Virus record (IMG/VR): IMGVR_UViG_2923323785_000006
Coordinates: 1 to 16,386 of that record
Source of the DNA: a virus
Lineage: Duplodnaviria; Heunggongvirae; Uroviricota; Caudoviricetes
Reading direction: 5' to 3' (one strand)
Length of the DNA stretch: 16,386 bases
In this document: one piece after another, positions 1-16,386 of the stretch
Layout: the number at the start of each line of letters is the position of its first letter
Numbering within the stretch: position 1 is the first letter of the stretch
Notes under the pieces: model-generated
Told to the model about the DNA's origin: nothing
The model's database searches: none
What the model saw: the letters and a program-made list of their open reading frames with translations, nothing else
Position numbers and translations under genes: made by a program

Positions 1-88
1 TTATCTTCTGGTATTTAGCTATCCCTCATAAGTTAATTGCCGCTGAGATATCCTAAGCTCTAGCCTCTGAAAATACATTTATATTTCG

Positions 89-114
89 AAGCCCGCGATA
101 TTTTAAGCGGGCTT
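89..114 (+). terminator. Hairpin (aagcccgc / gcgggctt, 10-nt loop) followed by TTATTTTA; intrinsic terminator candidate downstream of tfa
   Basis: Seen in sequence: 8-bp GC-rich inverted repeat at 89-96 / 107-114, T-rich tract 115-122 on + strand. On the minus (tfa) strand the flank is A-rich, so function there is less certain. Confidence 0.45.
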
Positions 115-119
115 TTATT

Positions 120-701
120 TTAAACTTCAGGTATTACAGGCCACTCAATATCAGGTGCAGTTGATGTATCAACACGGTTCAGCAACACCCGATACTTTTT
201 CCAGGCTTCCAGCAATGAGGTTTCTTCCTCCGTTGCGATTTCCAGATCTACAGCATCCTGAAGTGGCGCAATATGCTCACTGGCTACCTGCATCAGGCTG
301 TTTTTTGTTTCTTCCGCCTCCCGGATCCGGAACAGTTTTTCTGCTTCTGCATCTTTCACCCAGGCTGTGCCGTTCCACTTCTGAAACTCCCCTTCCGGCG
401 ATAACCAGGTAACATTTTCCGGTAATGATCCGAGTTCAGAAATAAATAACGCGTCGCCGGAAGCCACGTCATAAACCGTTTTACCCCGATGATCTTCAAC
501 GAGATGCCACGATGACTCATCACTGTTGAAAACAGCCACGAAGCCAGCCGGAATATCTGGCGGTGCAATATAGGTACTGTTTGCTGGCAGACCTGTATGA
601 GGCGGAATATATGCGTCACCTTCACCAATAAATTCATTAGTTCCGGCCAGCAGATTATAAATTTTTATGGTCCGTGGTTGTTCACTCATTCTGAATGCCA
701 T
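120..701 (-). CDS. tfa: Tail fibre assembly protein (lambda Tfa-like, 193 aa)
   Basis: Translation [24 protein letters not shown]... is near-identical over its length to lambda Tfa as I recall it. ATG at 701..699 overlaps the stf stop (TAATG). Confidence 0.92.
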
Positions 702-2713
702 TATGCAAGCCTCACAATGTAGTTAAATGCGATGTTTTTGACGGTGTTTTCCGCGTTACCAGCAGCGTTAACGGTGATGGTGTGTCCATGTGAGCCAATC
801 GCAACAGAGTGCGTATGAGCACCAATACCGACAGTATGTGCGTGAGCACCTGCAGATGCGGCTGTGCCGCTGACACTATGAGTGTGCGCTCCTGCAGCAC
901 TTGTATTCACACTGGCCGTAGACACTACCTTATGTACTGACCCATTTTGTGACCACTGGCTGACTGCTGATGCGCCTGTGACACTATGAGTATGGTTTCC
1001 GGCACTTGCGGCTGTACCGCTCACACTGTGCGTATGCGCCCCGGTGTTATTCGTGGATTTAGTGCCGTAATCAAACGACGATGTGGTTTTCGTCCCCAAA
1101 TCCGTACTGGATGCGCTGGCGCTGTGGGTGTGCGATTTAATGCCGTCCTGTTCCTGAGACAATACGGCACGACCACTGGCAGGTTTGCCCTTAATCGTCC
1201 AGCCACGCATATCAGGGATCACGCCTGACGGATAAGCGGCTGCAAGTTTCGGGTATGCAGATTTGTCAAAAGTCTGCCCCTGCATCAGGGCATAACCAGA
1301 CGGAACGGTATCTGATGGCCACGGGATTGGTGCACCGACTGGGTAGCTTTCTGGTGGAAGATTTTTCGAGGTATAAACTTCTGCCCAGTCTTCCTCAAAA
1401 CCATAGCCATCTCTTGAGGAACGGTAGAACAGACCTCCATTTCTGTAATGTGCCTTCATCTGCAAGGTCCGGCAACTTCCGACTCCGGTATAGAAGTTAA
1501 CCAGAATATAGCTGTCGCCAGAGCGGGTGACATTGTAAGCGCCTGATTCGGCATTCCATGGAACGCCCCCATCCGCATCGGCATACGTATCCGTTGCCCT
1601 TCTGGCAAAAGCAGCCACATGCGCGGCGGTTAAAGTAATATCTTTGGAACCATCAAACTCAACACCAGAAACCAGTCTTGGCGTTTGCAGCTTTGTTGCT
1701 GTTAATGCATTACCGTTCAGACTTGCGGACAGTTTGGTTCCAATAACCAGTTCGCCGGTTGCGTTATCAATAGCAAACGGTCTTAATGTATTCCAGCCAC
1801 CATAAACATCACCTTGATTGGTAAGCAGCAGGTAAGTTTTAGCGCCATCATTACGCCATAATGCACCATACTCCCCACCTATCATTCGAATCTGATTACC
1901 ACCACGCGCTACAATTTCGTCTGTGGCAAAAAGTTTTTTGCACGACAAGTTATCGTTAACGATTAACGAATGAGACTCATAAAAACCACGCCCACTCTTA
2001 AAATCAAGGATAACGTCCGCCGCGATACATTCAGTCGCTGGATTTGTTGCCCCAAACTTATAGGTCGTATCATTAACAACGAGATCAGCACCAGGTGCGG
2101 ATATTGACAGGCCATCTTCGATAAACGCAAAAACAGGGAAAGCAGCGCCATCAACATAGAACACAGAGCGCAAATCATCGCCCTTATTACTCATCATTAT
2201 TGAGTGGATGGCTCGTTCATTGTTTTGATATTGCCAGAACATTCCATAAGCATAACGCCCCCTGTCAGTCCAGCCACCAGGCATAACAAATCCGTTAAAC
2301 TCGCAGTTATTCATCGGATCGCCTGCGGTTCGCGTTGCCGTGGTGATAATGACCCTTGATGCCAGTTCGCTTACTGAGCCAGCAGAACGCATAACAACAA
2401 CAGGGTAATATTTTCCAGATGTTGCACCTGCAGGAGCGTTAACCCGCACATAACGCATACCACGCTTATCAGCAAAGTCTGTTTTACTGACCGCGTTAAT
2501 GTTGTTCAGGAAGCGTCCCTTATCGGGTATATCAGCGCCGTTCTGGTCTTTCTGCAGACGTTTCTCAGCATTGTCATTGGCTGCTTTTACTGCCTTTGGC
2601 GTTGCCGCCAGCGTTTCAGACGTGCTGTTGGTCGCACTGCTGAGCTGTACTATCCCCTTTTTCGTCGTGCTCGCATCCTCAAGCGCCACGGCGGATGCAA
2701 TACCGGCGCGACG
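701..2713 (-). pseudogene. stf: 5'-truncated side tail fibre gene (C-terminal ~660 codons of a lambda Stf-like protein; ORF track begins at a GTG at 2689)
   Basis: Translation ...[34 protein letters not shown]... through the His-rich [15 protein letters not shown] repeats and C-terminal ...[29 protein letters not shown] matches the lambda Stf C-terminal part. Homology stops near 2700-2713 where the frame runs into a stop, so the N-terminal ~450 codons are missing. Confidence 0.88.
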
Positions 2714-2772
2714 ATGATGCGGGCCTGTGGAGTTCTGCCGATCTGACTTATGTCATTACCTATGAAATGTGA
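2701..2772 (+). pseudogene. 3' remnant of minor tail protein U gene (last ~23 codons)
   Basis: In-frame translation [23 protein letters not shown] matches the lambda gpU C-terminus as recalled; no upstream continuation. Confidence 0.6.
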
Positions 2773-2778
2773 GGACGA

Positions 2779-3238
2779 TATGCCTGTACCAAATCCAGCA
2801 ATACCGGTGAAAGGTGCCGGAACCACCCTGTGGGTTTATAACGGGAGCGGCGACTCTTATGCGAACCCGCTTTCAGACGTTGACTGGTCGCGTCTGGCTA
2901 AAGTTAAAGACCTGACGCCCGGCGAACTGACCGCTGAGTCCTATGACGACAGTTATCTCGATGATGAAGATGCGGACTGGACCGCGACCGGGCAGGGGCA
3001 GAAATCCGCCGGAGATACCAGCTTCACGCTGGCGTGGATGCCCGGAGAGCAGGGGCAGCAGGCGCTGCTGGCGTGGTTTAATGAAGGTGATACCCGTGCC
3101 TATAAAATCCGCTTCCCACCACAAGCACGCTGCCGCCACCTTTCAGGGCTGAACGCTGCCCCTTTTTACGACGCCTGCGTCGGGACAGGACAATCCGCGC
3201 GTTACCCAGCTTTATTACGGGCAAATCCCCCCGGTTAA
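2779..3238 (+). pseudogene. Major tail protein V, N-terminal fragment (~113 aa of V fused to 40 unrelated codons)
   Basis: [50 protein letters not shown]...AYKIRFP matches the lambda gpV N-terminus; identity ends near nt 3118, after which the ORF continues in unrelated sequence to a stop at 3238. GAGGA Shine-Dalgarno precedes the ATG at 2779. Confidence 0.85.
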
Positions 3239-3295
3239 CCTTGATTCTGGCCTGCGGATTTTTGACCGTGGCCCTTTTCAGCCTGGCCCTTTCCT

Positions 3296-3880
3296 TTACC
3301 AGTTTCCGGCGTACCTTTGTCTCACGGGCAACCTGTGACGCCGACTGCGATATCGCGGATGAAGCAACGCGGTTATCAGTTCATCCAGCGCGGCTGCTTT
3401 GTTCATGGCTTTGATGATATCCCGTTTCAGGAAATCAACATGTCGGTTTTCCAGTTCCGGAAAACGCCGCTGCACCGACAGGGGGATCCCGTCGAGAATA
3501 CTGGCAATTTCACCTGCGATCCGCGACAGCACGAAAGTACAGAATGCGGTTTCCACCACTTCAGCGGAGTCTCTGGCATTTTTCAGCTCCTGTGCGTCGG
3601 CCTGCGCACGCGTAAGTCGATGGCGTTCGTACTCAATAGTCCCTGGCTGGAGATCTGTCTCGCTGGCCTGCCGCAGTTCTTCAACTTCCCGGCGCAGCTT
3701 TTCGTTCTCAATTTCAGCATCCCTTTCGGCATACCATCTTATAACGGCGGCAGAGTCATAAAGCACCTCATTACCCTTGCCACCGCCTCGCAGAACGGGC
3801 ATTCCCTGTTCCTGCCAGTTCTGAATGGTACGGATACTCGCACCGAAAATGTCAGCCAGCTGCTTTTTGTTGACTTCCAT
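3296..3880 (-). CDS. nohD: Terminase small subunit Nu1 homologue with replaced C-terminus (194 aa)
   Basis: MEVNKKQLADIFGASIRTIQNWQEQGMPVLRGGGKGNEVLYDSAAV... is near-identical to lambda Nu1 up to ...AAALDELI (about residue 171), then diverges (ITALLHPRYRSRRHRLPVRQRYAGNW). No gpA large terminase gene follows. Confidence 0.9.
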   Translation of the reverse strand: MEVNKKQLADIFGASIRTIQNWQEQGMPVLRGGGKGNEVLYDSAAVIRWYAERDAEIENEKLRREVEELRQASETDLQPGTIEYERHRLTRAQADAQELKNARDSAEVVETAFCTFVLSRIAGEIASILDGIPLSVQRRFPELENRHVDFLKRDIIKAMNKAAALDELITALLHPRYRSRRHRLPVRQRYAGNW

Positions 3881-4057
3881 TGTTCATCCCACGGCCAAAA
3901 ACAGAGAAAGGAAACGACAGAGGCCCAAAAGCTCGTTTTCAGCACCTGTCGTTTCCTTTCTTTTCAGGGGGTATTTTAAATAAAAACATTAAGTTACGAC
4001 GAAGAAGAACGGAAATACCTTAAACCGGAAAATTTTCATAAATAGCGAAAACCCGCG
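3881..4057 (-). promoter_or_regulatory. cosB region (Nu1-binding R sites and IHF site between cosN and the Nu1 start)
   Basis: Reverse complement reproduces the lambda left-end leader. R-site-like repeats seen at about 3906-3921, 3946-3961 and 3999-4014 (cgtttcc(t/g)ttct motifs and their complements). Confidence 0.75.
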
Positions 4058-4069
4058 AGGTCGCCGCCC
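4058..4069 (-). promoter_or_regulatory. cosN cohesive-end sequence (GGGCGGCGACCT on minus strand)
   Basis: Plus strand aggtcgccgccc is the exact reverse complement of the 12-nt lambda cohesive end, flanked by lambda-like left-end and right-end sequence. Confidence 0.85.
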
Positions 4070-4268
4070 CGTAACCTGTCGGATCGCCGGAAAGGACCCA
4101 CAAAATGATAATAATTATCATCTACATGTCACAACGTGCATCTACGCCATCAAACCACGTCAAATAATCAATTATGACGCAGGTATCGTATTAATTGATC
4201 TGCATCAACTTAACGTAAAAACAACTTCAGACAATACAAATCAGCGACACTGAATACGGGGCAACCTC

Positions 4269-4463
4269 ATGTCAACTAAGAACAGAACCCGCAGAACAAC
4301 AACCCGCAACATCCGCTTTCCTAACCAAATGATTGAACAAATTAACATCGCTCTTGAGCAAAAAGGGTCCGGGAATTTCTCAGCCTGGGTCATTGAAGCC
4401 TGCCGTCGGAGGCTAACGTCAGAAAAGAGAGCATATACATCAATTAAAAGTGATGAAGAATGA
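4269..4463 (+). CDS. ylcI: Small basic protein (64 aa), lambda right-end / DLP12 ylcI-like; possible ribbon-helix-helix fold
   Basis: ATG at 4269, MSTKNRTRRTTTRNIRFPNQMIEQINIALEQKGSGNFSAWVIEACRRRL...; position between cos and ybcW matches the DLP12 order as I recall it. Symbol assigned by position and length, not verified. Confidence 0.6.
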   Translation: MSTKNRTRRTTTRNIRFPNQMIEQINIALEQKGSGNFSAWVIEACRRRLTSEKRAYTSIKSDEE

Positions 4464-4627
4464 ACATCCCGCGTTCTTCCCTCCGAACAGGACGATATTG
4501 TAAATTCACTTAATTACGAGGGCATTGCAGTAATTGAGTTGCAGTTTTACCACTTTCCTGACAGTGACAGACTGCGTGTTGGCTCTGTCACAGGTTAAGT
4601 AGTTTGAATGATTAGCAGTTATGGTGA

Positions 4628-4834
4628 TCAGTCAACCACCAGGGAATAATCCTTCATATTATTATCGTGCTTCACCAACGCTGCCTCAATTGCCCTGAAT
4701 GCTTCCAGAGACACCTTATGTTCTATACATGCAATTACAACATCAGGGTAACTCATAGAAATGGTGCTATTAAGCATATTTTTTACACGAATCAGATCCA
4801 CGGAGGGATCATCAGCAGATTGTTCTTTATTCAT
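4628..4834 (-). CDS. ybcW: Small prophage protein YbcW-like (68 aa)
   Basis: ATG at 4834 with GGAG 9 nt upstream; translation [40 protein letters not shown]... matches my recollection of DLP12 YbcW. Confidence 0.7.
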
Positions 4835-5119
4835 TTTGTCGCTCCATGCGCTTGCTCTTCATCTAGCGGTTAAAATATTACTTCAAATCTTTCTGTATGA
4901 AGGTTTGAGCACGTTGGCCTTACATACATCTGTCGGTTGTATTTCCCTCCAGAATGCCAGCAGGACCGCACTTTGTTACGCAACCAATACTATTAATTGA
5001 AAACATTCCTAATATTTGACATAAATCATCAACAAAACACAAAGAGGTCAGACCAGATTGAAGCGATAAAAACGATAATGCAAACTACGCGCCCTCGTAT
5101 CACATGGAAGGTTTTACCA

Positions 5120-5530
5120 ATGGCTCAGGTTGCCATTTTTAAAGAAATATTCGATCAAGTGCGAAAAGATTTAAACTGTGAATTGTTTTATTCTGAACTA
5201 AAACGTCACAATGTCTCACATTATATTTACTATCTAGCCACAGATAATATTCACATTGTGTTAGAAAACGATAACACCGTGTTAATAAAAGGACTTAAAA
5301 AGGTTGTAAATGTTAAATTCTCAAGAAATACGCATCTTATAGAAACGTCCTATGATAGGTTGAAATCAAGAGAAATCACATTTCAGCAATACAGGGAAAA
5401 TCTTGCTAAAGCAGGAGTTTTCCGATGGATTACAAATATCCACGAACATAAAAGATATTACTATACCTTTGATAATTCATTACTATTTACTGAGAGCATT
5501 CAGAACACTACACAAATCTTTCCACGCTAA
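5120..5530 (+). CDS. ybcV: DUF1398-family protein YbcV-like (136 aa)
   Basis: ORF track starts at a TTG (4997); the internal ATG at 5120 has a GGAAGG Shine-Dalgarno 8 nt upstream and gives 136 aa ([43 protein letters not shown]...), the length I recall for YbcV. Confidence 0.75.
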
Positions 5531-5820
5531 ATCATAACGTCCGGTTTCTTCCGTGTCAGCACCGGGGTGTTGGCATAATACAATGCATGTACGCGCTAAA
5601 CCCTGTGTGCATCGTTTTTAATTATTCCCGGACACTCCCGCAGAGAAGTTCCCCGTCAGGGCTGTGGACATAGTTAATCCGGGAATACAATGACGATTCA
5701 TCGCACCTGGCATACATTAATAAATATTAACAATATGAAATTTCAACTCATTGTTTAGGGTTTGTTTAATTTTCTACACATACGATTCTGCGAACTTCAA
5801 AAAGCATCGGGAATAACACC

Positions 5821-6114
5821 ATGAAAAAAATGCTACTCGCTACTGCGCTGGCCCTGCTTATTACAGGATGTGCTCAACAGACATTTACTGTTCAAAACAA
5901 ACAGACAGCAGTAGCACCAAAGGAAACCATCACCCATCATTTCTTCGTTTCTGGAATTGGGCAGAAGAAAACTGTCGATGCAGCTAAAATTTGTGGCGGC
6001 GCAGAAAATGTTGTTAAAACAGAAACCCAGCAAACATTCGTAAATGGATTGCTCGGTTTTATTACTTTAGGCATTTATACTCCGCTGGAAGCGCGTGTGT
6101 ATTGCTCAAAATAA
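5821..6114 (+). CDS. borD: Bor outer-membrane lipoprotein (serum-resistance protein, 97 aa)
   Basis: MKKMLLATALALLITGCAQQ... has a lipoprotein signal peptide with lipobox LITGC; near-identical to lambda Bor; opposite strand to the lysis genes as in lambda. Confidence 0.93.
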   Translation: MKKMLLATALALLITGCAQQTFTVQNKQTAVAPKETITHHFFVSGIGQKKTVDAAKICGGAENVVKTETQQTFVNGLLGFITLGIYTPLEARVYCSK

Positions 6115-6145
6115 TTGCATGAGTTGCCCATCGATATGGTCAGCT

Positions 6146-6607
6146 CTATCTGCACTGCTCATTAATATACTTCTGGGTTCCTTCCAGTTGTTTTTGCATA
6201 GTGATCAGCCTCTCTCTGAGGGTGAAATAATCCCGTTCAGCGGTGTCTGCCAGTCGGGGGGAGGCTGCATTATCCACGCCGGAGGCCGTGGTGGCTTCAC
6301 GCACTGACTGACAGACTGCTTTGATGTGCAACCGACGACGACCAGCGGCAACATCATCACGCAGAGCATCATTTTCAGCTTTCGCATCAGCTAACTCCTT
6401 CGTGTATTTTGCATCGAGCGCAGCAACATCACGCTGACGCATCTGCATGTCAGTAATTGCCGCGTTCGCTAGCTTCAGTTCTCTGGCATTTTTGTCGCGC
6501 TGGACTTTGTAGGCGATTGCGTTATCACGGTAATGATTGACCGCCCATGACAGGCTGACGATGATGCAGATAATCAGAGCGGATATAATCGCGGTTACTC
6601 TGCTCAC
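6146..6607 (-). CDS. rzpD: Rz i-spanin (153 aa, GTG start)
   Basis: (M)[59 protein letters not shown]... is near-identical to lambda Rz. GTG at 6607..6605 overlaps the R stop (GTGA); GGGGG Shine-Dalgarno 7 nt upstream. Confidence 0.9.
6205..6387 (-). CDS. rzoD: Rz1 o-spanin lipoprotein embedded in the +1 frame of Rz (60 aa)
   Basis: [60 protein letters not shown]: lipobox VVGC and proline-rich region, matches lambda Rz1 as recalled; lies entirely inside Rz. Confidence 0.88.
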
Positions 6608-7101
6608 TGTTGCCCCCACAAACAGACTTCACGCTCAATCTCACGACGAGTCATCAGGCCTTTCCATTGCTTACCGCCAGCGTATGTCCAGCGACGCAGC
6701 TGATCACATGCGCCTTTGATATCGCCCTGGTTTATTTTGCGAAGAAGCGTCGATGTTCTAAAATTGCCAGCACCCACGTTGTAAACGAATGAGTAAAGAG
6801 CGCCGCGCGTTGTTTCCGGTATATCGACTTTGATATACGGGTTAATTTGTCTGGCGACAGTGGCAAGGTCTTTATTCAAGAGTGCTTTGCATTCTGCTTT
6901 GGTATACGTTTTACCGAGCATGATGTCTTTTCCGGTGTGTCCGTGACATACAGTCCATACACCAACAATATCTTTGTATGGTATGTAGCTGACACCTTCC
7001 AGACCATCGTTACCACTTGGGCCAGTGATTAACACTGATGCTATAGCAATTGCTCCGCCACCAATAGCAGCAGCAACGGCTTTTCGTAATGATGGAGGCA
7101 T
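6604..7101 (-). CDS. rrrD: SAR endolysin (P21 R-type lysozyme, 165 aa)
   Basis: N-terminal signal-anchor-release segment ([20 protein letters not shown]) followed by a T4-lysozyme-like catalytic region; ATG at 7101 overlaps the holin stop (TAATG). Confidence 0.9.
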
Positions 7102-7316
7102 TATTCACCTCTCGCGGCCTTGCGCTTATCTTCTTTAATCTTGAAATAAAGGTTTGTCAGGTACGTCAGCAGGCCAAATACCAGGCTACCCAGCACACCT
7201 ATTGCTGCCCACTGTGAGGGAGTGACTTTATCGAGCAGCTGTAAAAACCAGTAACCGGCACTACCTGCTGAGGTGCCATAGGCGACTCCAGTTGTTAACT
7301 TATCCATGAATTTCAT
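7101..7316 (-). CDS. essD: Pinholin (S21-type, 71 aa, dual-start motif MKFM)
   Basis: [71 protein letters not shown]: two transmembrane segments, Lys before the second Met (holin/antiholin dual start); GAGGTGGGG Shine-Dalgarno upstream of 7316. The ORF-track extension to 7361 is rejected. Confidence 0.88.
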
Positions 7317-7361
7317 AACCCCACCTCGCAGACAAAGCGGGTGTAAATTGAGGGAATACAA

Positions 7362-7904
7362 CGTATCGCAAAAAAGCAGAAACGTAACTGACTCCGAGTC
7401 AGTGAATAACTCAGGTATTGAGTTATCAGCTAATATCGAGACTCAAAAAATGGAAAAACCAGCGCGACGGCGGGTTTAAGCTGTGTGACGAAGTAACCAC
7501 TCTTAACAGCATAACCAATTTTTTACGTACGTAAACCACTGAATGATATTTATGAGAATGCTACCGAGTGTTCAAAACATCACCACAAATACATAAGAAA
7601 ACTTCAACAAATAACCAATAAATAATTTCCAGTGTTATTTTTAGCTGGTTTAAATTAAACAGACGAATTATAGAACCACCATAAATAACAGCCATTAATA
7701 TAAATTAGCTAATAGATTTATTTTTGTTCAAATAAGAGCCATAAATAGGTTTCGATAGAAAAAGTTCAGATAAAAATAGAGATCTACTTCACAAATTAAA
7801 TGAGAAACTAAAACTTACATCTTGAAATAATCACATTGATTAGATGAATATTTATCGCGCAGTGACATCATTTTTTAATAATAGTTCAAAAAAAAGGGCT
7901 CACG
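7362..7904 (+). promoter_or_regulatory. AT-rich ~540-bp non-coding region upstream of nmpC (porin promoter / regulatory region, possible H-NS target)
   Basis: Seen in sequence: long A/T runs (7560-7900) and no credible ORF; lies between the divergent holin and porin starts. Confidence 0.4.
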
Positions 7905-9002
7905 ATGAAAAAATTAACAGTGGCAATTTCTGCTGTAGCTGCATCAGTACTGATGGCGATGTCTGCTCAGGCAGCTGAAATTTATAATAAAGACAGTAAC
8001 AAGCTGGATCTGTACGGGAAAGTTAATGCCAAGCACTACTTTTCCTCTAACGATGCAGATGATGGTGATACTACTTATGTTCGTCTGGGCTTCAAAGGCG
8101 AAACCCAAATCAACGATCAGCTGACTGGTTTCGGTCAGTGGGAATATGAATTCAAAGGCAACCGCGCTGAATCTCAAGGTTCCTCCAAAGACAAAACCCG
8201 TCTTGCATTTGCAGGCCTGAAATTCGGTGACTACGGCTCAATCGATTACGGCCGTAACTACGGTGTAGCATACGACATCGGTGCGTGGACTGACGTTCTG
8301 CCAGAATTCGGTGGCGATACCTGGACCCAAACAGATGTGTTCATGACTGGTCGCACCACTGGTGTTGCAACCTATCGTAACAACGACTTCTTTGGTCTGG
8401 TTGATGGTCTGAACTTTGCTGCTCAGTACCAAGGCAAAAACGATCGTAGCGATTTCGATAACTACACCGAAGGTAACGGTGATGGCTTCGGTTTCTCTGC
8501 TACCTATGAATACGAAGGATTCGGTATCGGTGCAACTTATGCGAAATCTGATCGTACCGACACTCAAGTTAATGCAGGGAAAGTTCTTCCTGAAGTATTT
8601 GCTTCCGGTAAAAATGCAGAAGTTTGGGCCGCAGGTCTGAAATATGACGCTAACAACATTTACCTGGCCACTACCTATTCTGAAACCCAGAATATGACTG
8701 TATTTGCTGATCACTTCGTTGCTAATAAAGCTCAAAACTTCGAAGCTGTTGCACAATATCAGTTCGATTTCGGTCTGCGTCCGTCCGTTGCTTACCTGCA
8801 ATCTAAAGGTAAGGATCTTGGAGTATGGGGCGATCAGGACTTAGTCAAATATGTTGATGTAGGTGCAACCTATTACTTCAACAAAAATATGTCTACTTTC
8901 GTTGATTACAAAATCAACCTGCTTGACAAAAATGACTTCACTAAAGCACTCGGTGTAAGCACTGATGACATCGTTGCTGTAGGTCTGGTTTACCAGTTCT
9001 AA
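7905..9002 (+). CDS. nmpC: General outer-membrane porin NmpC (OmpC/OmpF/PhoE family), intact, 365 aa
   Basis: Signal peptide [23 protein letters not shown], then [17 protein letters not shown]... and C-terminal ...VAVGLVYQF (terminal Phe, beta-barrel signature); classic enterobacterial porin motifs throughout. Confidence 0.93.
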
Positions 9003-9018
9003 TCTGATTACGAAAAAG

Positions 9019-9053
9019 ATATGTTGCGGGAGGCGTTGCCTCCCCAACATATA
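9019..9053 (-). terminator. Long hairpin (about 15 bp with one bulge) followed on the minus strand by CTTTTTCG; candidate tR'-like terminator of the late leader
   Basis: Seen in sequence: atatgttgcgggaggc / gcctccccaacatat inverted repeat; U-tract on the minus strand only; sits about 140-170 nt downstream of the Q stop. Confidence 0.5.
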
Positions 9054-9140
9054 AGTGGCTCCCTCAAGCCACTTCCTTTAGGAGCACAACCTTGCTTCTA
9101 ACTATATAAACCTTCTGTTATATATTACCCTTTATTTTTG

Positions 9141-9165
9141 GGGGCGTTGCAACGCCCCATTTTTA
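9141..9165 (+). terminator. Intrinsic terminator (ggggcg-ttgcaa-cgcccc followed by ATTTTTA), probable nmpC terminator
   Basis: Seen in sequence: perfect 6-bp GC stem, 6-nt loop, T-tract on + strand. Confidence 0.65.
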
Positions 9166-9191
9166 ATAACTTTCAGTAAACAATTGGCATA

Positions 9192-9575
9192 TTAATTAGA
9201 GTTATTAACAACGATATCCATCTCTAACCGGATATCTAATGCCATTAACATCCCTTCAATTATGCCCTCAGCCTTCTGTAACCTTTTCCCGATATAACCA
9301 TCAGAGCAGCAATGCTTACCTGCCAGTGACATGAATGTCATACCGACTACATAATAATCTACTAATAAATCGTGCAAATCGCTGTTGTTCTTTTTCAGAC
9401 GGGCCATGCACCCGCAAATGATCATCGCGTCATCGTCACAACATTGCGGGCGAGATTTTACTTTTGAAGGAATTAATCCCTTAAAACCGGCGGCAATGGA
9501 CGACCAGGTCACATCTTCATGATTATTAGCCGCCCACGCTCCCCAACGTTCAAGAACCATCTGAATATCACGCAT
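9192..9575 (-). CDS. quuD: Late-gene antiterminator Q (127 aa)
   Basis: [62 protein letters not shown]... matches my recollection of DLP12 QuuD; ATG at 9575 with GGAGAAAG Shine-Dalgarno; position directly upstream of the lysis cassette. Confidence 0.85.
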
Positions 9576-9592
9576 TAACTTTCTCCACAAAA

Positions 9593-10588
9593 TCAGGCCA
9601 GCACACCAATCGCCAGTGCGCGATCGATAAAACGAAATATCAGCTCCAGCTGGGAGCCATACTTCTCTTCAAATGCCACGGTATCCGCATGCAGTTCGTC
9701 GTGGTGTTTTCTGCACAAAGGCAGCACAAAAAGGTCATGCGCTTTTGTACCCATTCCACCCTGACCATGGCCTATCAGATGATGCGGATCATCAGCTGGC
9801 TTTCCACAACATGCACACGGCTGCGTCTTAACCCAGCGCGTGTACTGTTCATTAACCCAGCGACGACGTTTGGGGCGTAACATAAAAGACTCCGGCGACT
9901 CCGGATCCACTTTCAGCGCCAGCACCTTTTTCGCTTTATCCTGGATAATGCTGGTGGCAGGAACCGAAGGCACAAGGTCACTTTCCCGGGTGACAGACGG
10001 CAAAACAGACTTCGGTAATCTCAGTGCCTTACGGGCTGCGCTTTCCGGTAAGGCATCCGCCAGGTCATTACGAACCAGCCACCAGCACAGTTCCGGCATT
10101 GTCACGGCATGGTTATCATTAAAATCGAGATCCCGACGGACTACAGACAACACCCAATGGGCACAGTTATCCGTTGCCATTGATTCCAGCCGCTCCGTGA
10201 ACTGATCACGTAACTGATTATCGCAGTGCCAGCACAGACGGATTGCGCCCGGCGCGTGTCGCATTGTGGTCATGTTCTCGCTGTGCCAGTCGGAATGAGG
10301 CCACTGGCAGCCTTTTTCACGAAGTAACCAGCTTTCAAGACATTCCACCCCACCAGCACGACGAATCACTGCCTCATTACGGAACACGGCCCGAACGGCA
10401 GGATCATCCGCCAGCGGTTGTGATGCCGCGGGAACGGCACCACTGGCGAAAGATGAATAATGCTCCGGCTCAGGCTCCAGCAGTACACGCCCCTGCATAA
10501 ACAGGGGCATCAGCTCTGAACCGGGCCTGAACAATACGATCCCCATACGCGGGGCAATTTCAGGGGTCAGTAGTGCTCTCACGGTCAC
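9593..10588 (-). CDS. DUF968-like (YdfU-like) protein with C-terminal HNH-like metal-binding motif (about 329-331 aa; start GTG at 10588 or 10582)
   Basis: C-terminal ...[46 protein letters not shown]... has CxxC, His-His and C..HH..H spacing typical of HNH nucleases; additional CWHC motif mid-protein. Sits immediately upstream of Q, like ydfU-quuQ in the Qin prophage (from memory). Confidence 0.7.
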
Positions 10589-10589
10589 C

Positions 10590-11387
10590 TCAATGAACGG
10601 TATCGAGCAGCTTTAACAGCTCAGGGAATCGGGATTCGAAGAAATGCGGCTGCGTCTCGCGCGGATTTGCGGGACTGGTGATGTTCTTGCCGAACATGCA
10701 GCCTTTCGCTGTCAGCGACCAGAATTTTTTGATGTTGTTAATAGCGGTACGGCTGTATCGTTCGCGCTGCTCGACGATCCCCAGCTTCACCATCTGGTGA
10801 TATGCCTGATTAGCTGTCAGGCGGATACCATACTGCTTCAGCAGTGCACTCAGTGACAGCGTGGGACGGCTTGAGCCATCAGGCGCGTCAGCAGGAGCAT
10901 CAATGGCATAGCGCGGTGCCAGATTCGGTAAGCCAACAGCCTCCTGGAGTTTCTGACAGGCACCAAGCACTGAAGAGTTAGACAGGTTTAACTCCCGGCG
11001 CATAAAGTCCAGCAGAATCACGCCAGCCTGCATCTTGTCAGCAGCCTGCCCGGATAATTTTTCCGATGCGCTGGTTACCATATCGAAAGTACGGATCACC
11101 TTCAGATGGAATGACGGGCTGATCCACATTGCATAGGCATACACCAGTTCTTTGCAGACATACGTCCCCTGGTTATTTCCGCCACGAATAACGTTAACTG
11201 GCTCTATATTGACCGAGTTGCAAATCTGCAACTCGCTTATTAAACGTTCAGTTTGCTCATTGCGGAGCCAGAATGCAGGCTTATGCTTATCCAGAGAACC
11301 GGCAGCCCTGTGCAGATCGTTCAGGCTGTAACGCCCATAAGCATCACGACGAACTTCAATACCATCAATGACCATCAGATTATTCAT
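10590..11387 (-). CDS. KilA-N domain protein with ANT/KilAC-like C-terminal half (antirepressor-like, 265 aa)
   Basis: N-terminus MNNLMVIDGIEVRRDAYGRYSLNDLHRAAGSLDKHKPAFWLRNEQTERLISEL... resembles the KilA-N fold family; ATG at 11387 with AGAGGAGAAA Shine-Dalgarno. The ORF-track GTG extension to 11420 is rejected. Confidence 0.72.
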   Translation of the reverse strand: MNNLMVIDGIEVRRDAYGRYSLNDLHRAAGSLDKHKPAFWLRNEQTERLISELQICNSVNIEPVNVIRGGNNQGTYVCKELVYAYAMWISPSFHLKVIRTFDMVTSASEKLSGQAADKMQAGVILLDFMRRELNLSNSSVLGACQKLQEAVGLPNLAPRYAIDAPADAPDGSSRPTLSLSALLKQYGIRLTANQAYHQMVKLGIVEQRERYSRTAINNIKKFWSLTAKGCMFGKNITSPANPRETQPHFFESRFPELLKLLDTVH

Positions 11388-11406
11388 ACTTCGTTTCTCC
11401 TCTTGA

Positions 11407-11796
11407 TCAGGCGGCTGCACCCGCCGTTTTCTCGTACTTACTGATAGTGATCTCGACCTTCCCTTCCGGGATAACCGGTCCCCACTCCACCAGCATTCTT
11501 TTCACCTGGCTGTCGTCTTCCCACACACCCGCGTGGGTCAGGGCGTCAAACAGCGCCTTGTTATAGTTGTCCAGATCGCGGATCCGGTTATCCGGAGGAA
11601 ACAACACGATCTCCACTGAAGCAGGTGCCGACGTTGGTTTCGGCAGACGACGTAACTGCTCAACTATTGCTGTGCACGCCGCACTCTGGAATTTTCGCCC
11701 CGCCGCGCTTATCAGGCTCTTACCAGCAAATGCCCCTTTGTTGGGGTGTCGCCAGTAGGTGTTCACGCTGGGTGGAAAAGGCAGAATCAGCTTCAT
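11407..11796 (-). CDS. rusA: RusA-family Holliday junction resolvase (129 aa)
   Basis: MKLILPFPPSVNTYWRH... and RDLDNYNKALFDALTHAGVWEDDSQV match RusA catalytic-region motifs. ATG at 11796 overlaps the stop of the upstream gene (ATGA); GAGGGGG Shine-Dalgarno. Confidence 0.85.
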   Translation of the reverse strand: MKLILPFPPSVNTYWRHPNKGAFAGKSLISAAGRKFQSAACTAIVEQLRRLPKPTSAPASVEIVLFPPDNRIRDLDNYNKALFDALTHAGVWEDDSQVKRMLVEWGPVIPEGKVEITISKYEKTAGAAA

Positions 11797-12119
11797 ACTT
11801 TCAGCCCCCTCTCATGTAACCAGTGGGCTGCACGCAGCCTGGCGTTTTCCTCACCAGCAAGCAGTGCGCGGATAATCCCGGCCACCTCGCTGTCGTCGTC
11901 CTTCACCGCGGTATGAAGCGTGATGCCCCGGGCCACGCCACGCTTTATCGTGATGACGCCTTTTTTCTCCAGTGCGCGAAGATGCTCCACCGCTGCATTC
12001 ACTGAACGGTATCCCAGCATGGTAGCCACCTCCTGATTGGTTGGCGGGAAGCCACGTTCTTTCTGGTAAGAAATCAGCATATCCAGCACCTGCTGCTGGC
12101 ATTGAGTTAACGTCGTCAT
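11793..12119 (-). CDS. LexA N-terminal DNA-binding-domain-only protein (about 108 aa; no S24 peptidase domain)
   Basis: MTTLTQCQQQVLDMLISYQKERGFPPTNQEVATMLGYRSVNAAVEHLRALEKKGVITIKRGVARGITL aligns position-by-position with the LexA winged-helix domain (recalled from memory); the protein ends about 40 aa later. ATG at 12119 overlaps the upstream stop (TAATG); GGGGG Shine-Dalgarno. Confidence 0.8.
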   Translation of the reverse strand: MTTLTQCQQQVLDMLISYQKERGFPPTNQEVATMLGYRSVNAAVEHLRALEKKGVITIKRGVARGITLHTAVKDDDSEVAGIIRALLAGEENARLRAAHWLHERGLKV

Positions 12120-12370
12120 TAAGCCCCCACGTAATTCCCTGACAGATACCACTCTTCACCCGATACAGCGCGCTTGCTGCTTTTCCGTAAACACCGCTCA
12201 CGACGCGCAAGAAAATTGTTTCGCTCTTGCTGGGAGTGGCTTTCACGGAATGCCGCCATCCACACCGTTGCAGCACGACGGTATAAGCCCCTGGACTCCA
12301 GTTCTTCCGCCTGGCGGGTCAGGCACAAAATCACCCGGGGATCGTTAGTGCCGACATAGAAATTGTGCAC
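12119..12370 (-). CDS. Small PerC/Pch-like putative transcriptional activator (83 aa, GTG start)
   Basis: Motif AEELESRGLYRRAATVWMAAF resembles the LE..G.WRRAA..W core I recall for the PerC family; family assignment is from memory and the start codon is GTG without a strong Shine-Dalgarno. Confidence 0.5.
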   Translation of the reverse strand: MHNFYVGTNDPRVILCLTRQAEELESRGLYRRAATVWMAAFRESHSQQERNNFLARRERCLRKSSKRAVSGEEWYLSGNYVGA

Positions 12371-12406
12371 AGGTCTGGATTCACGAACTGGTTGCGGTTC
12401 CGGCTC

Positions 12407-12607
12407 CTACGGTATCTCAGTCAGCCGCGGGAAATGTCTGCGTGTATCCCCTTCACAACGGTGAGCCACACGCCCACTCTGACGTAACTTGCTTGCTGAC
12501 TGCAGAACGCGCTGTCGTGAGTAACCTGCAAAAGCATCAGCAATGTCTCCGGAAGTACACCCCGGATGGGCTTCAATGAATTTCTGAACGTCATTCAAAA
12601 GACTCAT
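12407..12607 (-). CDS. Small hypothetical protein (66 aa), possible winged-helix DNA-binding fold; first gene of the minus-strand operon
   Basis: ATG at 12607 with GGGGGTGA Shine-Dalgarno 6 nt upstream; MSLLNDVQKFIEAHPGCTSGDIADAFAGYSRQRVLQSASKLRQSGRV... The ORF-track extension to 12730 is rejected (Arg/Gln-rich, no ribosome-binding site). Confidence 0.45.
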   Translation of the reverse strand: MSLLNDVQKFIEAHPGCTSGDIADAFAGYSRQRVLQSASKLRQSGRVAHRCEGDTRRHFPRLTEIP

Positions 12608-12849
12608 GATCACCCCCTGAATCCTGCCGGGATCTGGCTGTAGTCCACGTTGTCGTAACTGGCTTTGAAGTACGGGTCTTCGCGTTTTTCGGTGTACGTG
12701 CTGACTATTCTGCAGGAAGACTATGGACAATTACTGACTCTTGCCGGTGAACCTGACGGAAAACTACGCGCAGCAGGTCATTAATATCGTTCTTAATAAA
12801 CTGATTATTTATCTCATCACTGAATATCTTTATATAGTGAGGACTTATT
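12608..12849. promoter_or_regulatory. Divergent intergenic region between the minus-strand (nin/Q/late) and plus-strand (yfdQ...int) operons; presumed promoters, no repressor gene
   Basis: No ORF with repressor features on either strand; AGTGAGGA Shine-Dalgarno for the first plus-strand gene at 12836-12843; promoter hexamers not confidently assignable by eye. Confidence 0.4.
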
Positions 12850-13674
12850 ATGTCTCAGAACTTAGACGCAACCGCAATTAATCAAATCCATGCCCTTATT
12901 TCTGCTCAGGGTGTTAATGAAATTATCAGTAAGATTTGTGCCGATGCTGTGGCATTGCCTGAGAATTTCCGCATTCATGATCTGGAAAAATTTAATTTAA
13001 ATCGCTTCCGTTTCCGTGGTGCGCTTTCCACTGCCAGCATCGATGACTTTACCCGTTATTCTAAAGATCTTGCAGATGAAGGCACCCGCTGCTTTATCGA
13101 TGCCGATAATATGCAAGCCGTCAGTGTGCTTAACCTGGGTACTATTGATGAACCAGGTCACGCAGATAACACCGCCACTCTCAAACTGAAAAAGACAGCA
13201 CCGTTCTCTGCCCTGTTGTCTGTTAACGGCGAGCGTAACTCCCAGAAGTCACTGGCAGAATGGATTGAAGACTGGGCCGACTACCTTGTGGGCTTTGATG
13301 CTAATGGTGACGCCATTCAGGCAACCAAAGCGGCTGCGGCGATCCGTAAAATCACAATTGAAGCGAACCAGACCGCTGATTTTGAAGATAATGACTTCAG
13401 CGGCAAACGCTCCCTGATGGAGTCTGTCGAAGCGAAGACCAAAGACATTATGCCAGGGGCATTTGAATTTAAATGCGTTCCGTTTGAAGGTCTGAAAGAA
13501 CGTCCATTTAAATTACGCCTCAGCATTATCACTGGCGATCGTCCTGTACTGGTTCTGCGCATTATTCAGCTGGAAGCGGTGCAGGAAGAAATGGCTAACG
13601 AATTTCGTGATCTGCTTGTTGAGAAATTCAAAGACAGCAAAGTAGAAACCTTTATTGGTACTTTCACCGCCTGA
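12850..13674 (+). CDS. yfdQ: YfdQ-like protein (DUF2303-type, 274 aa)
   Basis: [21 protein letters not shown]...; length and sequence match my recollection of CPS-53 YfdQ; first gene of a four-gene cluster. Confidence 0.75.
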
Positions 13675-13686
13675 TTTCATTACTGC

Positions 13687-13710
13687 AAATGCCCCTGCGG
13701 GGGCATTTAT
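13687..13710 (+). terminator. Hairpin (tgcccc-tgcg-ggggca) followed by TTTAT; candidate attenuator or terminator between the first two cluster genes
   Basis: Seen in sequence: aaatgcccctgcgggggcattt near-perfect inverted repeat directly after the yfdQ-like stop. Confidence 0.5.
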
Positions 13711-13801
13711 GGAAACGTAATTAACTCAATAATCACCGGATGGTGAGGGCTTCCTTTTACCAGAATTCAGCGCGGTGCAGTGCATACACGTGGAGAACAA
13801 A

Positions 13802-14338
13802 ATGTCATTTATTAAAACTTTTTCCGGGAAGCATTTTTATTATGACAAGATAAATAAAGACGACATCGATATTAACGATATCGCGGTTTCCCTTTCAAAT
13901 ATCTGTCGCTTTGCCGGTCATCTTTCGCACTTCTACAGCGTCGCCCAACATGCGGTTCTTTGCAGCCAGCTGGTGCCGCAGGAATTTGCTTTTGAAGCGT
14001 TAATGCATGATGCAACAGAAGCGTATTGCCAGGACATTCCCGCACCACTGAAACGCCTTCTTCCTGACTATAAACGGATGGAAGAAAAAATAGACGCCGT
14101 AATCCGTGAGAAATACGGGTTACCCCCAGTTATGAGTACACCCGTGAAATATGCCGATCTCATCATGCTGGCAACCGAACGCCGCGATCTCGGGCTTGAT
14201 GATGGCTCTTTCTGGCCTGTACTGGAAGGCATCCCGGCAACAGAGATGTTCAACGTGATTCCACTGGCACCGGGTCATGCCTACGGGATGTTTATGGAAC
14301 GTTTTAACGATTTATCGGAGTTACGCAAATGCGCATGA
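13802..14338 (+). CDS. yfdR: HD-domain phosphohydrolase, YfdR-like 5'-deoxynucleotidase (178 aa)
   Basis: ATG at 13802 with GGAGAA Shine-Dalgarno; HD-domain metal-binding signature ...FAGHLSHFYSVAQHAVL...MHDATEAY...; length equals K-12 YfdR as recalled. The ORF-track GTG start at 13775 is rejected. Confidence 0.85.
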   Translation: MSFIKTFSGKHFYYDKINKDDIDINDIAVSLSNICRFAGHLSHFYSVAQHAVLCSQLVPQEFAFEALMHDATEAYCQDIPAPLKRLLPDYKRMEEKIDAVIREKYGLPPVMSTPVKYADLIMLATERRDLGLDDGSFWPVLEGIPATEMFNVIPLAPGHAYGMFMERFNDLSELRKCA

Positions 14339-14691
14339 ATGTTTTCGAAATGGAAGGGTTTCTTCGCGGGAAATGTGTACCGCGAGATCTGAAAGTGAAC
14401 GAAACAAATGCTGAGTACCTGGTACGTAAATTCGACGCGCTTGAAGCTAAATGTGCGGCACTGGAAAACAAAATAATACCAGTGTCAGCTGAACTGCCAC
14501 CAGCAAATGAAAGTGTTCTGTTATTTGATGCTAATGGAGAAGGCTGGCTGATTGGCTGGCGTTCTCTCTGGTACACCTGGGGACAAAAAGAAACCGGAGA
14601 ATGGCAGTGGACATTTCAGGTCGGGGACCTTGAAAACGTCAATATCACTCACTGGGCAGTAATGCCAAAAGCACCGGAGGCTGGAGCATAA
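14329..14691 (+). CDS. yfdS: YfdS-like protein (120 aa)
   Basis: MRMNVFEMEGFLRGKCVPRDLKVNETNAEYLV...; overlaps the upstream stop by 10 nt, and its stop overlaps the next start (TAATG). Confidence 0.7.
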   Translation: MRMNVFEMEGFLRGKCVPRDLKVNETNAEYLVRKFDALEAKCAALENKIIPVSAELPPANESVLLFDANGEGWLIGWRSLWYTWGQKETGEWQWTFQVGDLENVNITHWAVMPKAPEAGA

Positions 14692-14996
14692 TGACCACAT
14701 TTACCAATAAAGAACTGATTAAAGAAATCAAAGAACGAATCAGCAGCCTAGAGGTTCGAGACGATATTGAGCGCCGTGCTTATGAAATCGCACTCGTATC
14801 TCTGGAAGTAGAGCCAGATGAACGCGAAGCCTATGAATTATTCATGGAAAAGCGTTTCGGTGACTTAGTAGATCGTCGGAGAGCAAAAAACGGCGATAAC
14901 GAATACATGGCATGGGATATGACTCTCGGTTGGATCGTCTGGCAGCAACGAGCTGGTATCCATTTTTCAACAATGACACAGCAAGAGGTGAAATAA
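14691..14996 (+). CDS. yfdT: YfdT-like protein (101 aa)
   Basis: MTTFTNKELIKEIKERISSLEVRDD...; start and stop both share bases with the neighbouring genes (TAATG junctions). Confidence 0.7.
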   Translation: MTTFTNKELIKEIKERISSLEVRDDIERRAYEIALVSLEVEPDEREAYELFMEKRFGDLVDRRRAKNGDNEYMAWDMTLGWIVWQQRAGIHFSTMTQQEVK

Positions 14997-15367
14997 TGGA
15001 GCCATACAGCCTCACACTCGATGAGGCCTGTCAGTTTCTTAAGATATCCAGACCAACCGCCACCAACTGGATACGAACAGGCCGCCTACAGGCAACACGT
15101 AAAGATCCAACCAAGCCAAAATCTCCTTACCTCACAACACGGCAAGCTTGCATTGCGGCGCTTCAGTCTCCGCTGCATACTGTCCAGGTGAGCGCGGGTG
15201 ATGGCATAACAGAGGAAAGAAAATGTCACTCTTCCGCAGAAATGAAATATGGTATGCCTCGTATTCGCTCCCGGGCGGGAAACGAATTAAGGAATCTCTT
15301 GGCACAAAGGACAAGCGGCAAGCTCAGGAGTTGCACGACAAGCGAAAAGCAGAACTCTGGCGAGTAG
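14996..15367 (+). CDS. Excisionase-like HTH protein (AlpA/Xis family); 3' end uncertain, reading frame overlaps int by 145 nt
   Basis: ATG at 14996 with GAGGTGA Shine-Dalgarno; [32 protein letters not shown] resembles excisionase-type HTH domains; position immediately upstream of int. The tail beyond about residue 65 may be a frameshift artefact. Confidence 0.55.
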
Positions 15368-16386
15368 AAAAGCTAGGGGATTTACCTGATGTCACTTTTG
15401 AAGAGGCCTGCCTAAGATGGCTTGAGGAAAAAGCTGATAAAAAATCTCTCGATTCAGATAAAAGCCGGATTGAGTTTTGGCTTGAACATTTTGAGGGTAT
15501 AAGGCTTAAAGATATCTCGGAGGCAAAGATTTACTCTGCTGTAAGCAGAATGCATAACAGAAAGACGAAAGAAATATGGAAACAGAAAGTTCAGGCCGCC
15601 ATCAGGAAAGGTAAAGAACCGCCTGTTTATGAACCAAAGCCAGTATCAACTCAGACAAAGGCAAAGCATCTTGCCATGATAAAGGCCATTCTCCGTGCTG
15701 CAGAACGCGACTGGAAGTGGCTGGAAAAAGCGCCTGTCATCAAGATACCAGCGGTCAGAAACAAGCGAGTCAGATGGCTGGAAAAGGAGGAAGCAAAACG
15801 CCTTATTGATGAGTGCCCCGAACCACTGAAATCTGTCGTCAAGTTTGCGCTGGCAACTGGTCTGAGAAAGTCGAACATCATAAATCTGGAATGGCAACAA
15901 ATCGACATGCAGCGACGAGTTGCCTGGGTGAATCCAGAAGAGAGCAAATCAAACCGCGCCATTGGTGTGGCGCTGAACGATACCGCCTGTAAAGTGTTGC
16001 GTGATCAAATAGGCAAGCATCACAAATGGGTGTTTGTACATACCAAGGCGGCTAAGCGAGCAGATGGAACATCAACGCCTGCGGTCAGGAAGATGCGCAT
16101 CGACAGCAAGACATCATGGCTATCAGCTTGTCGTCGTGCAGGAATTGAAGATTTCCGTTTCCATGACCTCAGACACACCTGGGCAAGCTGGCTGATCCAG
16201 TCAGGCGTCCCATTATCTGTGCTTCAGGAAATGGGCGGATGGGAGTCCATAGAAATGGTTCGTAGGTATGCTCACCTTGCGCCTAATCATTTGACAGAGC
16301 ATGCAAGGAAAATAGACGACATTTTTGGTGATAATGTCCCAAATATGTCCCACTGTGGAATTATGGAGGATATAAAGAAGGCGTAA
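15223..16386 (+). CDS. intD: Tyrosine site-specific integrase (P21/DLP12 IntD-type, 387 aa)
   Basis: [50 protein letters not shown]...; C-terminal catalytic motifs ...[39 protein letters not shown] (R..H-x-x-R...Y). GAGGAAAG Shine-Dalgarno; the stop codon is the last 3 nt of the window. Confidence 0.93.

Follow-up and report, generated by a model that had tools for sequence, protein, structure and literature searches.

The porin gene lc of phage PA-2 and its homologue nmpC in the DLP12 (qsr') prophage of Escherichia coli K-12 have been described, together with their positions in the two elements, the disruption of the K-12 copy by IS5 and the ipeX RNA, in work spanning 1985 to 2006. The paper on the PA-2 gene is reportedly that of Blasband, Marcotte and Schnaitman from 1986. 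Here, we analyse a 16,386-nt stretch of DNA (hereafter, the window), which corresponds to positions 1 to 16,386 of the Caudoviricetes record IMGVR_UViG_2923323785_000006 of IMG/VR, and focus on positions 7362-9165, where the initial annotation placed an intact nmpC porin gene transcribed antisense inside the late operon. By its sequence, this segment is the classical lambdoid porin cassette lc/nmpC known from PA-2 and DLP12, in an intact copy, and the finding is in that sense already known. What could be observed directly is the identity of the gene, its intactness, the layout of the cassette and, for the block containing the late promoter pR', both its homology and its location. We consider it very probable that the window carries an intact lc/nmpC cassette with an ipeX tail in a DLP12-type prophage, that pR' is located on the holin side of the cassette and that late transcription does not cross the porin gene.

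The porin open reading frame (7905-9002, + strand) starts with ATG and encodes 365 amino acids followed by a stop codon, with no internal stop, and the product matches the Pfam family Porin_1 (PF00267) across the whole profile (1-337 of 337; E-value of 1.8e-156), in agreement with the complete gene originally proposed. The protein is identical at 362 of 365 positions to Lc of PA-2 and at the same number of positions to NmpC of K-12 from which IS5 has been removed. The lc region of PA-2 (GenBank J02580), for which the lc coding sequence, the Lc signal peptide and two CRP sites are annotated, shows 97.6% nucleotide identity to the 1.8-kb segment. Between Q and the lysis genes, the two loci share the gene and its orientation, as well as the upstream region and the 3' untranslated region (UTR). 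The differences include three substitutions in the protein (V59A, R99H and V154F, with the window residue given first and that of Lc second), clustered substitutions within the AT-rich spacer (7640-7740) and two bases in the terminator loop; furthermore, PA-2 is an active phage, whereas the element hosting the cassette in the window is a defective prophage.

The first 23 codons (7905-7973, +) encode an N-terminal Sec signal peptide with the predicted cleavage site AQA/AE, such that the start of the mature protein coincides with the start of the solved porin chains. The mature porin (residue 24 up to the C-terminal Phe) can be aligned over its entire length with the solved chains of OmpC, OmpK36, PhoE and OmpF (E-values from 1e-136 to 1e-118), its last residues, VYQF, provide the C-terminal aromatic residue (beta-signal), and the L3 motif PEFGG is present. 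By these features, the protein is classified as a full-length general porin of the OmpC/OmpF/PhoE/OmpD family, and the alignment to the OmpC, PhoE and OmpF structures predicts a trimer of 16-strand beta-barrels with an L3 constriction loop. If the cassette is transcribed, the precursor would be exported by the Sec system before assembly into a trimeric general porin with 16 strands. Differences among eight porin alleles are concentrated in five periodic patches (8422-8461, 8542-8621, 8702-8741, 8822-8861 and 8902-8981), all in the C-terminal half of the gene (8422-8981 in total), with the N-terminal half being nearly invariant. This periodicity is consistent with the patches corresponding to diversifying surface loops.

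In the K-12 copy, IS5B is inserted after the base equivalent to position 8944 of the window (codon 346/347; target CTAA), and the last 19 residues are replaced by a short out-of-frame tail, yielding a porin truncated after codon 346. By contrast, the target site around 8944 is uninterrupted and the porin is continuous in the window, so that the statement that IS5 is absent here holds. A study by Castillo-Keller et al. from 2006, said to be the primary source on ipeX, reportedly also found that the K-12 insertion parts ipeX from the porin promoter. The segment is matched in 3659 of 5426 complete E. coli genomes (at least 80% of its length being covered in 2465), and the uninterrupted IS5-target junction, probed with 120 nt, is present in approximately 769 of the 5426. 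The nmpC-IS5 junction of K-12 was found in 282 of the same 5426 genomes, and laboratory strains, K-12 among them, account for most of the twelve genomes listed for it. The exact porin protein is encoded on at least 1000 public contigs, some sources naming it 'outer membrane porin protein LC', and the segment is carried by 36 phage genomes. In wild E. coli, the porin gene is usually intact, making the disrupted K-12 copy exceptional.

In E. coli, nmpC is generally taken to correspond to ompD (PMC3333887). The chromosomal OmpD-type porins of Salmonella, Citrobacter and Enterobacter also belong to the Porin_1 family and show 75-79% amino acid identity to the window porin. None of the retrieved flanks of OmpD-like porin loci, from Citrobacter, Enterobacter, Salmonella and other genera, contains Q, holin or endolysin genes, ipeX or the pR' block. 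Hence, the OmpD-type loci of other genera appear to be host genes, whereas the window porin is prophage cargo. We also considered the gene as a host ompC/ompD paralogue and rejected this assignment, given that it is flanked in the window by Q and by holin, endolysin and spanin genes and that ipeX was not found at the retrieved porin loci of other genera.

The position of the porin gene relative to the late promoter could be assessed through comparison with the Stx phages 933W and SC370, in which the order is Q-pR'-qut-tR'-(tRNAs)-stx-S and which resemble the window in the family of Q, in the homologous pR'-qut-terminator block and in carrying cargo in the Q-S interval. The Q antiterminator of the window, QuuD (9192-9575, -; 127 amino acids; PF06530, E-value of 8.5e-54), is distantly related to the protein in the solved Q21 structure and is 79% identical to the 933W Q over residues 1-126, the residues past approximately 120 being without a match. 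In the 933W record, pR' (TTTACG, 16 nt, TATCAT; NC_000924, 20666-20693) overlaps the end of Q and is followed by qut and then by a rho-independent terminator (20726-20748); the promoter and terminator annotations in the SC370 record are the same. The window contains a single homologue of this block, on the minus strand at 7536-7454 (77% identity over 83 bp), and it is not next to Q. The putative pR' in this block (7508-7535, -) consists of a -35 hexamer TTTACG (7535-7530), identical to that of 933W, a 16-nt spacer of conserved length and a -10 hexamer TATGCT (7513-7508) at the equivalent position. It is followed by the initial transcribed region AAGAGTGGTTAC (7504-7493), an exact 12-mer which, together with the position that corresponds to the 'qut' annotation of 933W, spans 7487-7504 (-), and by a weakened homologue of tR', a hairpin with T-runs aligned to the 933W terminator (7444-7477, -). 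The 12-mer AAGAGTGGTTAC is common to 933W, PA-2, K-12 DLP12, 434B, PhiR29_1, ev099, PhiR34_1, ev243, ev207 and 2G7b, and is located upstream of S in all carriers except for 933W, where it directly follows Q. The porin gene lies between Q and the S-R-Rz genes on the opposite strand not only in the window but also in PA-2, DLP12, 434B, PhiR29_1, ev099, PhiR34_1, ev243, ev207 and 2G7b.

The block is thus placed between the AT-rich region of the porin gene and essD (7101-7316, -; PF04971), the class II holin gene with which the lysis cassette begins downstream of pR'. Its distance is about 190 bp to the ATG of the holin gene and about 370-400 bp to that of the porin gene, the block being upstream in both cases. 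In a conservation profile of eight porin-bearing prophages and phages, the block is nearly invariant, whereas the neighbouring AT-rich spacer is variable. The block of K-12 DLP12 is 97% identical to that of the window. Matches in phage records number 362 for the pR' block and 369 for this Q gene, and in the annotated matches from Stx phages, the block falls under the Q gene. Taken together, these comparisons place the porin cassette between the Q open reading frame, with a break near codon 120, and pR'; insertion of the cassette would have separated codon ~120 of Q from the cognate late promoter of this Q, so that pR'-qut-tR' is now found at 7535-7444 (-). From this position, Q-modified transcription is predicted to start near 7501 on the minus strand and to run away from the porin gene, diverging from the porin promoter without crossing the gene. 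In the Stx phages, stx is downstream of pR', co-oriented with it and Q-dependent, whereas the porin cargo is upstream of pR', on the opposite strand and, having its own promoter and terminator, would be Q-independent. As a separate observation, the -35 hexamer of pR' is part of a perfect 14-bp palindrome, TTTACGTACGTAAA (7522-7535, -), the 933W equivalent of which is TTTACGATCGTAAA; the central change is symmetric and preserves the palindrome in 933W, suggesting a binding site for a dimeric protein.

The cassette itself is laid out on the plus strand as an AT-rich region (~7545-7904), the coding sequence (7905-9002), ipeX (9003-9165) and a terminator (9141-9164). The GC content drops to 24.5-29.5% over 7500-7900, compared to ~45-50% in the flanks, which bears out the AT-rich upstream region noted initially; the regulatory region and porin 5' UTR (7545-7904, +; GC 25-30%) contain a core (7822-7861) that is invariant across the eight alleles. 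The intrinsic terminator of the porin/ipeX transcript, about 140 nt past the stop codon, has a stem at 9141-9158 (7 bp with 6 GC pairs) followed by ATTTTT. Its end agrees with that given initially for the segment (9165). The terminator closes a 163-nt structured 3' UTR that had been overlooked, namely, ipeX, the inhibitor of OmpC/OmpF expression (9003-9165, +). This region is 98% identical to the sequences downstream of nmpC in K-12 and lc in PA-2, shows 93-100% identity across the alleles, being more conserved than the adjoining coding sequence, and is predicted to fold into five hairpins (-62.4 kcal/mol, z-score of -7.75). An Rfam scan of the whole window gave no match to the ipeX family, its only match being IS009. 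Repression of both ompC and ompF by ipeX has been reported (PMC5069750; PMC8065619); the ipeX tail of the porin transcript would accordingly lower OmpC and OmpF, and the net effect would be a porin swap with altered permeability and an altered set of surface receptors. The description of the cassette as a moron is upheld by its own terminator and AT-rich regulatory region and by comparison with 933W, where Q abuts pR' with nothing in between; given this cargo-free arrangement, the cassette behaves as a moron.

Several points weigh against this reading of the locus. The assignment of pR' is by homology to annotations that are marked 'putative' in the 933W and SC370 records rather than to a mapped start in a DLP12-type element, and the promoter was missed by the simple scan because its hexamers score only 8 of 12 against the consensus. 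The tR' hairpin in the window has a predicted free energy of -5.9 kcal/mol, no better than shuffled sequences, compared to -12.0 in K-12 DLP12 and -14.8 in 933W; the weakness results from two substitutions in the 3' arm and could render the lysis cassette leakier in the window copy. Phage ev087, with a Q that is 89% identical, has no detectable 933W-type block within 5.7 kb or before its holin gene, so that the pairing between Q proteins and promoters in this family is not fully understood. On the porin side, a simple scan found no sigma-70 consensus promoter in 7545-7904; the ipeX fold is backed by thermodynamics only, because substitutions in the stems are few among the eight alleles and none is compensatory. 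Finally, the evidence for expression comes from homologues in other strains.

The initial annotation, by contrast, took the porin gene to lie within the Q-dependent late operon, with a pR' next to Q driving convergent, antisense transcription through it. This is in keeping with the location of pR' directly after Q, or overlapping it, in lambda and 933W, with a terminator-like hairpin found in the Q direction 140-180 nt past Q, which can be read as tR', and with a 9-nt island, ATATAACAG, that is found downstream of Q in both the window and ev087. However, the sole homologue of the pR'-qut-terminator block of this Q family is located beyond the porin gene, and the block is nearly invariant and always just upstream of S in all ten porin-bearing phages or prophages examined. 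A simple promoter scan detected nothing promoter-like in the minus strand of the interval separating Q from the porin gene (9191-9003). The porin gene is therefore best placed upstream of, and divergent from, pR' rather than downstream of it, and we regard the late-operon arrangement as improbable. The porin gene is, as initially stated, on the strand opposite to Q (9192-9575, -) and essD (7101-7316, -) and between the two, but neither its location inside the late operon nor the necessity of antisense late transcription through it is borne out, as the pR' homologue is on the holin side (7535-7508, -), with the late transcripts predicted to start upstream of the porin gene and to diverge from it. 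We also sought a pR' adjacent to Q by aligning ev087, but the common stretch is just 9 nt long and, with ev087 lacking a 933W-type block, the comparison is uninformative. Directly after Q, ev087 (390-3441) carries a reverse-strand lipocalin (blc) gene.

A compromise would be that two late promoters coexist, the S-proximal block and a second Q-responsive promoter beside Q, with part of the late transcription crossing the porin gene. The absence of an S-proximal block from ev087 despite the closely similar Q, which is followed immediately by a promoter-like sequence and by a terminator, speaks for this possibility, but the 933W block matches each porin-bearing locus just once and the simple scan of the window found no consensus promoter beside Q, making such a duality highly improbable. 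In the arrangement that we favour, with pR' on the holin side, what could still cross the porin gene in the antisense direction is early read-through from upstream of Q. The strong hairpin in the Q direction (9010-9052, -; -21.3 kcal/mol, z-score of -5.0), which is followed by CUUUUUCG and sits within ipeX, just before the porin stop codon as seen in the Q direction, may serve to terminate the Q (early) transcript and would stop those of the read-through transcripts that are not antiterminated. Over approximately 155 nt, the 3' end of the Q transcript would then be perfectly antisense to ipeX. It is conceivable, but in our judgement very unlikely, that Q mRNA ending at 9052-9010 titrates or destabilises the porin/ipeX RNA and that pR', the sigma-E promoter and the porin promoter share an H-NS-bound spacer acting as a switch; if true, prophage induction or envelope stress would be coupled to the porin repertoire.

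A different kind of objection leaves the anatomy unchanged and holds that the intact porin gene is quiescent, an H-NS-silenced and idle relic with no role in the outer membrane under ordinary conditions. Consistent with this view, the host element is a decayed prophage, and in K-12, the homologous upstream region is a promoter island that is bound by H-NS and yields very little transcription (PMC3661553). Against this view, homologues are expressed: NmpC of the Perceval prophage in strain LF82 is found approximately 10-fold above the local background (PMC9928086), and the nmpC genes of CFT073 are preferentially expressed at 37 °C, as judged from both RNA and protein (PMC12890032). The core promoter and 5' UTR, like ipeX, are more conserved among the eight alleles than the porin coding region. 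Furthermore, a remnant in Escherichia albertii NBRC 107761 (locus 231-2760) has kept bor, the porin gene (96% amino acid identity), ipeX (87%) and a weakly similar Q-like fragment of 31 amino acids, followed by host genes for a CxxCxxCC domain protein, an FAA hydrolase and YcgL, with the other phage genes lost, and this retention of bor, porin and ipeX suggests selection for the cassette. An intact nmpC in E. coli B was reportedly called 'quiescent' by Prilipov et al. in 1998, which would favour silence. On balance, we consider such an idle gene unlikely.

Expression of the porin gene, the effect of ipeX, silencing by H-NS, control by CRP and the sigma-E promoter are discussed here on the basis of the literature and homology. 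The intergenic region between nmpC and essD in K-12 is a promoter island that was bound by H-NS in all studies by chromatin immunoprecipitation on microarrays considered (PMC3661553); the initial suggestion to compare promoter activity with and without hns is thereby already answered for K-12. The first of the two CRP sites annotated in PA-2 (J02580, 1067-1087) maps to 7481-7501, that is, within the pR' initial transcribed/qut region, about 400 bp from the porin ATG, and may not be a regulatory site of the porin gene. The second site maps, through the alignment, to approximately 7776-7796. On the minus strand, a candidate sigma-E promoter of the lysis cassette (7855-7888; TGAACTA, 16 nt, TCACT), with a start at about 7856, overlaps the porin 5' region. 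In PMC7918800, with reference to Rueggeberg 2015, the extent of a lysis-cassette reporter is given as '-121 to +650', and its amplicon primers map to 7977-7193 of the window, which corresponds to a start near 7856 (-). As judged from the reporter mapping and the motif, a putative sigma-E promoter would precede the lysis cassette. At porin codons 5-7, we found CAGUGGC, the complement of what we take to be the RybB seed. Separately, nmpC has been reported as a RybB target (PMC3333887).

The whole 16,386-nt window is 100% identical to the chromosome of E. coli MB06101 (3428080-3444465). In that record, the element spans 16.4 kb and is bounded by a tail-fibre assembly gene on one side and by intD on the other, tRNA-Arg (argU) following directly past intD. 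Its genes for tail fibre, gpU, tail tube and tail are truncated, and head, repressor/immunity and replication genes are absent. The element is hence assigned as a defective DLP12-type prophage at argU, for which 'late operon' and 'lysogen' are only loosely appropriate terms. It has the attachment region (argU/intD) and the late gene order from quuD to the small terminase subunit in common with K-12 DLP12: quuD, porin, essD, rrrD, rzpD, bor, ybcV, ybcW, ylcI and the small terminase subunit follow each other as in the K-12 prophage (quuD-nmpC-...-nohD). The lysozyme/endolysin (rrrD; 6604-7101, -) and Rz (rzpD; 6146-6607, -) genes were recognized from the window annotation and profile matches. 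The early region differs, with DUF968, KilA-N and yfd-type genes in place of ybcK-ybcO of K-12 DLP12, and the prophage can accordingly be described as a mosaic. This early half (9593-16386) encodes DUF968, KilA-N, RusA, LexA-like and yfdN/Q/R/T-type genes, several of which are fragments, and one internal stop was noted. The complete 46-kb phage PhiR29_1 contains the same Q-porin-S block (99.7% identity) and also has DUF968, RusA and LexA-like early genes, so that the window looks like a decayed relative of such phages. Phage 434B (OL657227, 4419-8010), a laboratory isolate of 434 and a viable 434xDLP12 recombinant, carries the K-12 block quuD-nmpC::IS5-essD, obtained by recombination, with the crossover placed in ylcG according to the record; the Q/pR'/lysis module of DLP12 is thus functional in a plaque-forming phage. 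At the other end of the window, the IS009 match (RF02111; 160-358, -) is full-length, scores 229.5 bits (gathering score, 117) and falls within the tail-fibre assembly gene (120-701).

Overall, the observation underlying the initial annotation is confirmed, with none of the features attributable to chance, whereas its interpretation is partly supported. As a discovery, this matters little, the gene being ordinary and already known, but two points are useful for annotation. Genome records usually label the gene just 'porin', 'OmpC' or 'OmpD' and leave the ipeX tail unannotated. Furthermore, the late promoter of DLP12/PA-2-type elements would be located on the holin side of the porin gene, so that transcription of the porin gene and Q-dependent transcription would be divergent rather than convergent, a layout that alters what should be expected from strand-specific RNA sequencing.

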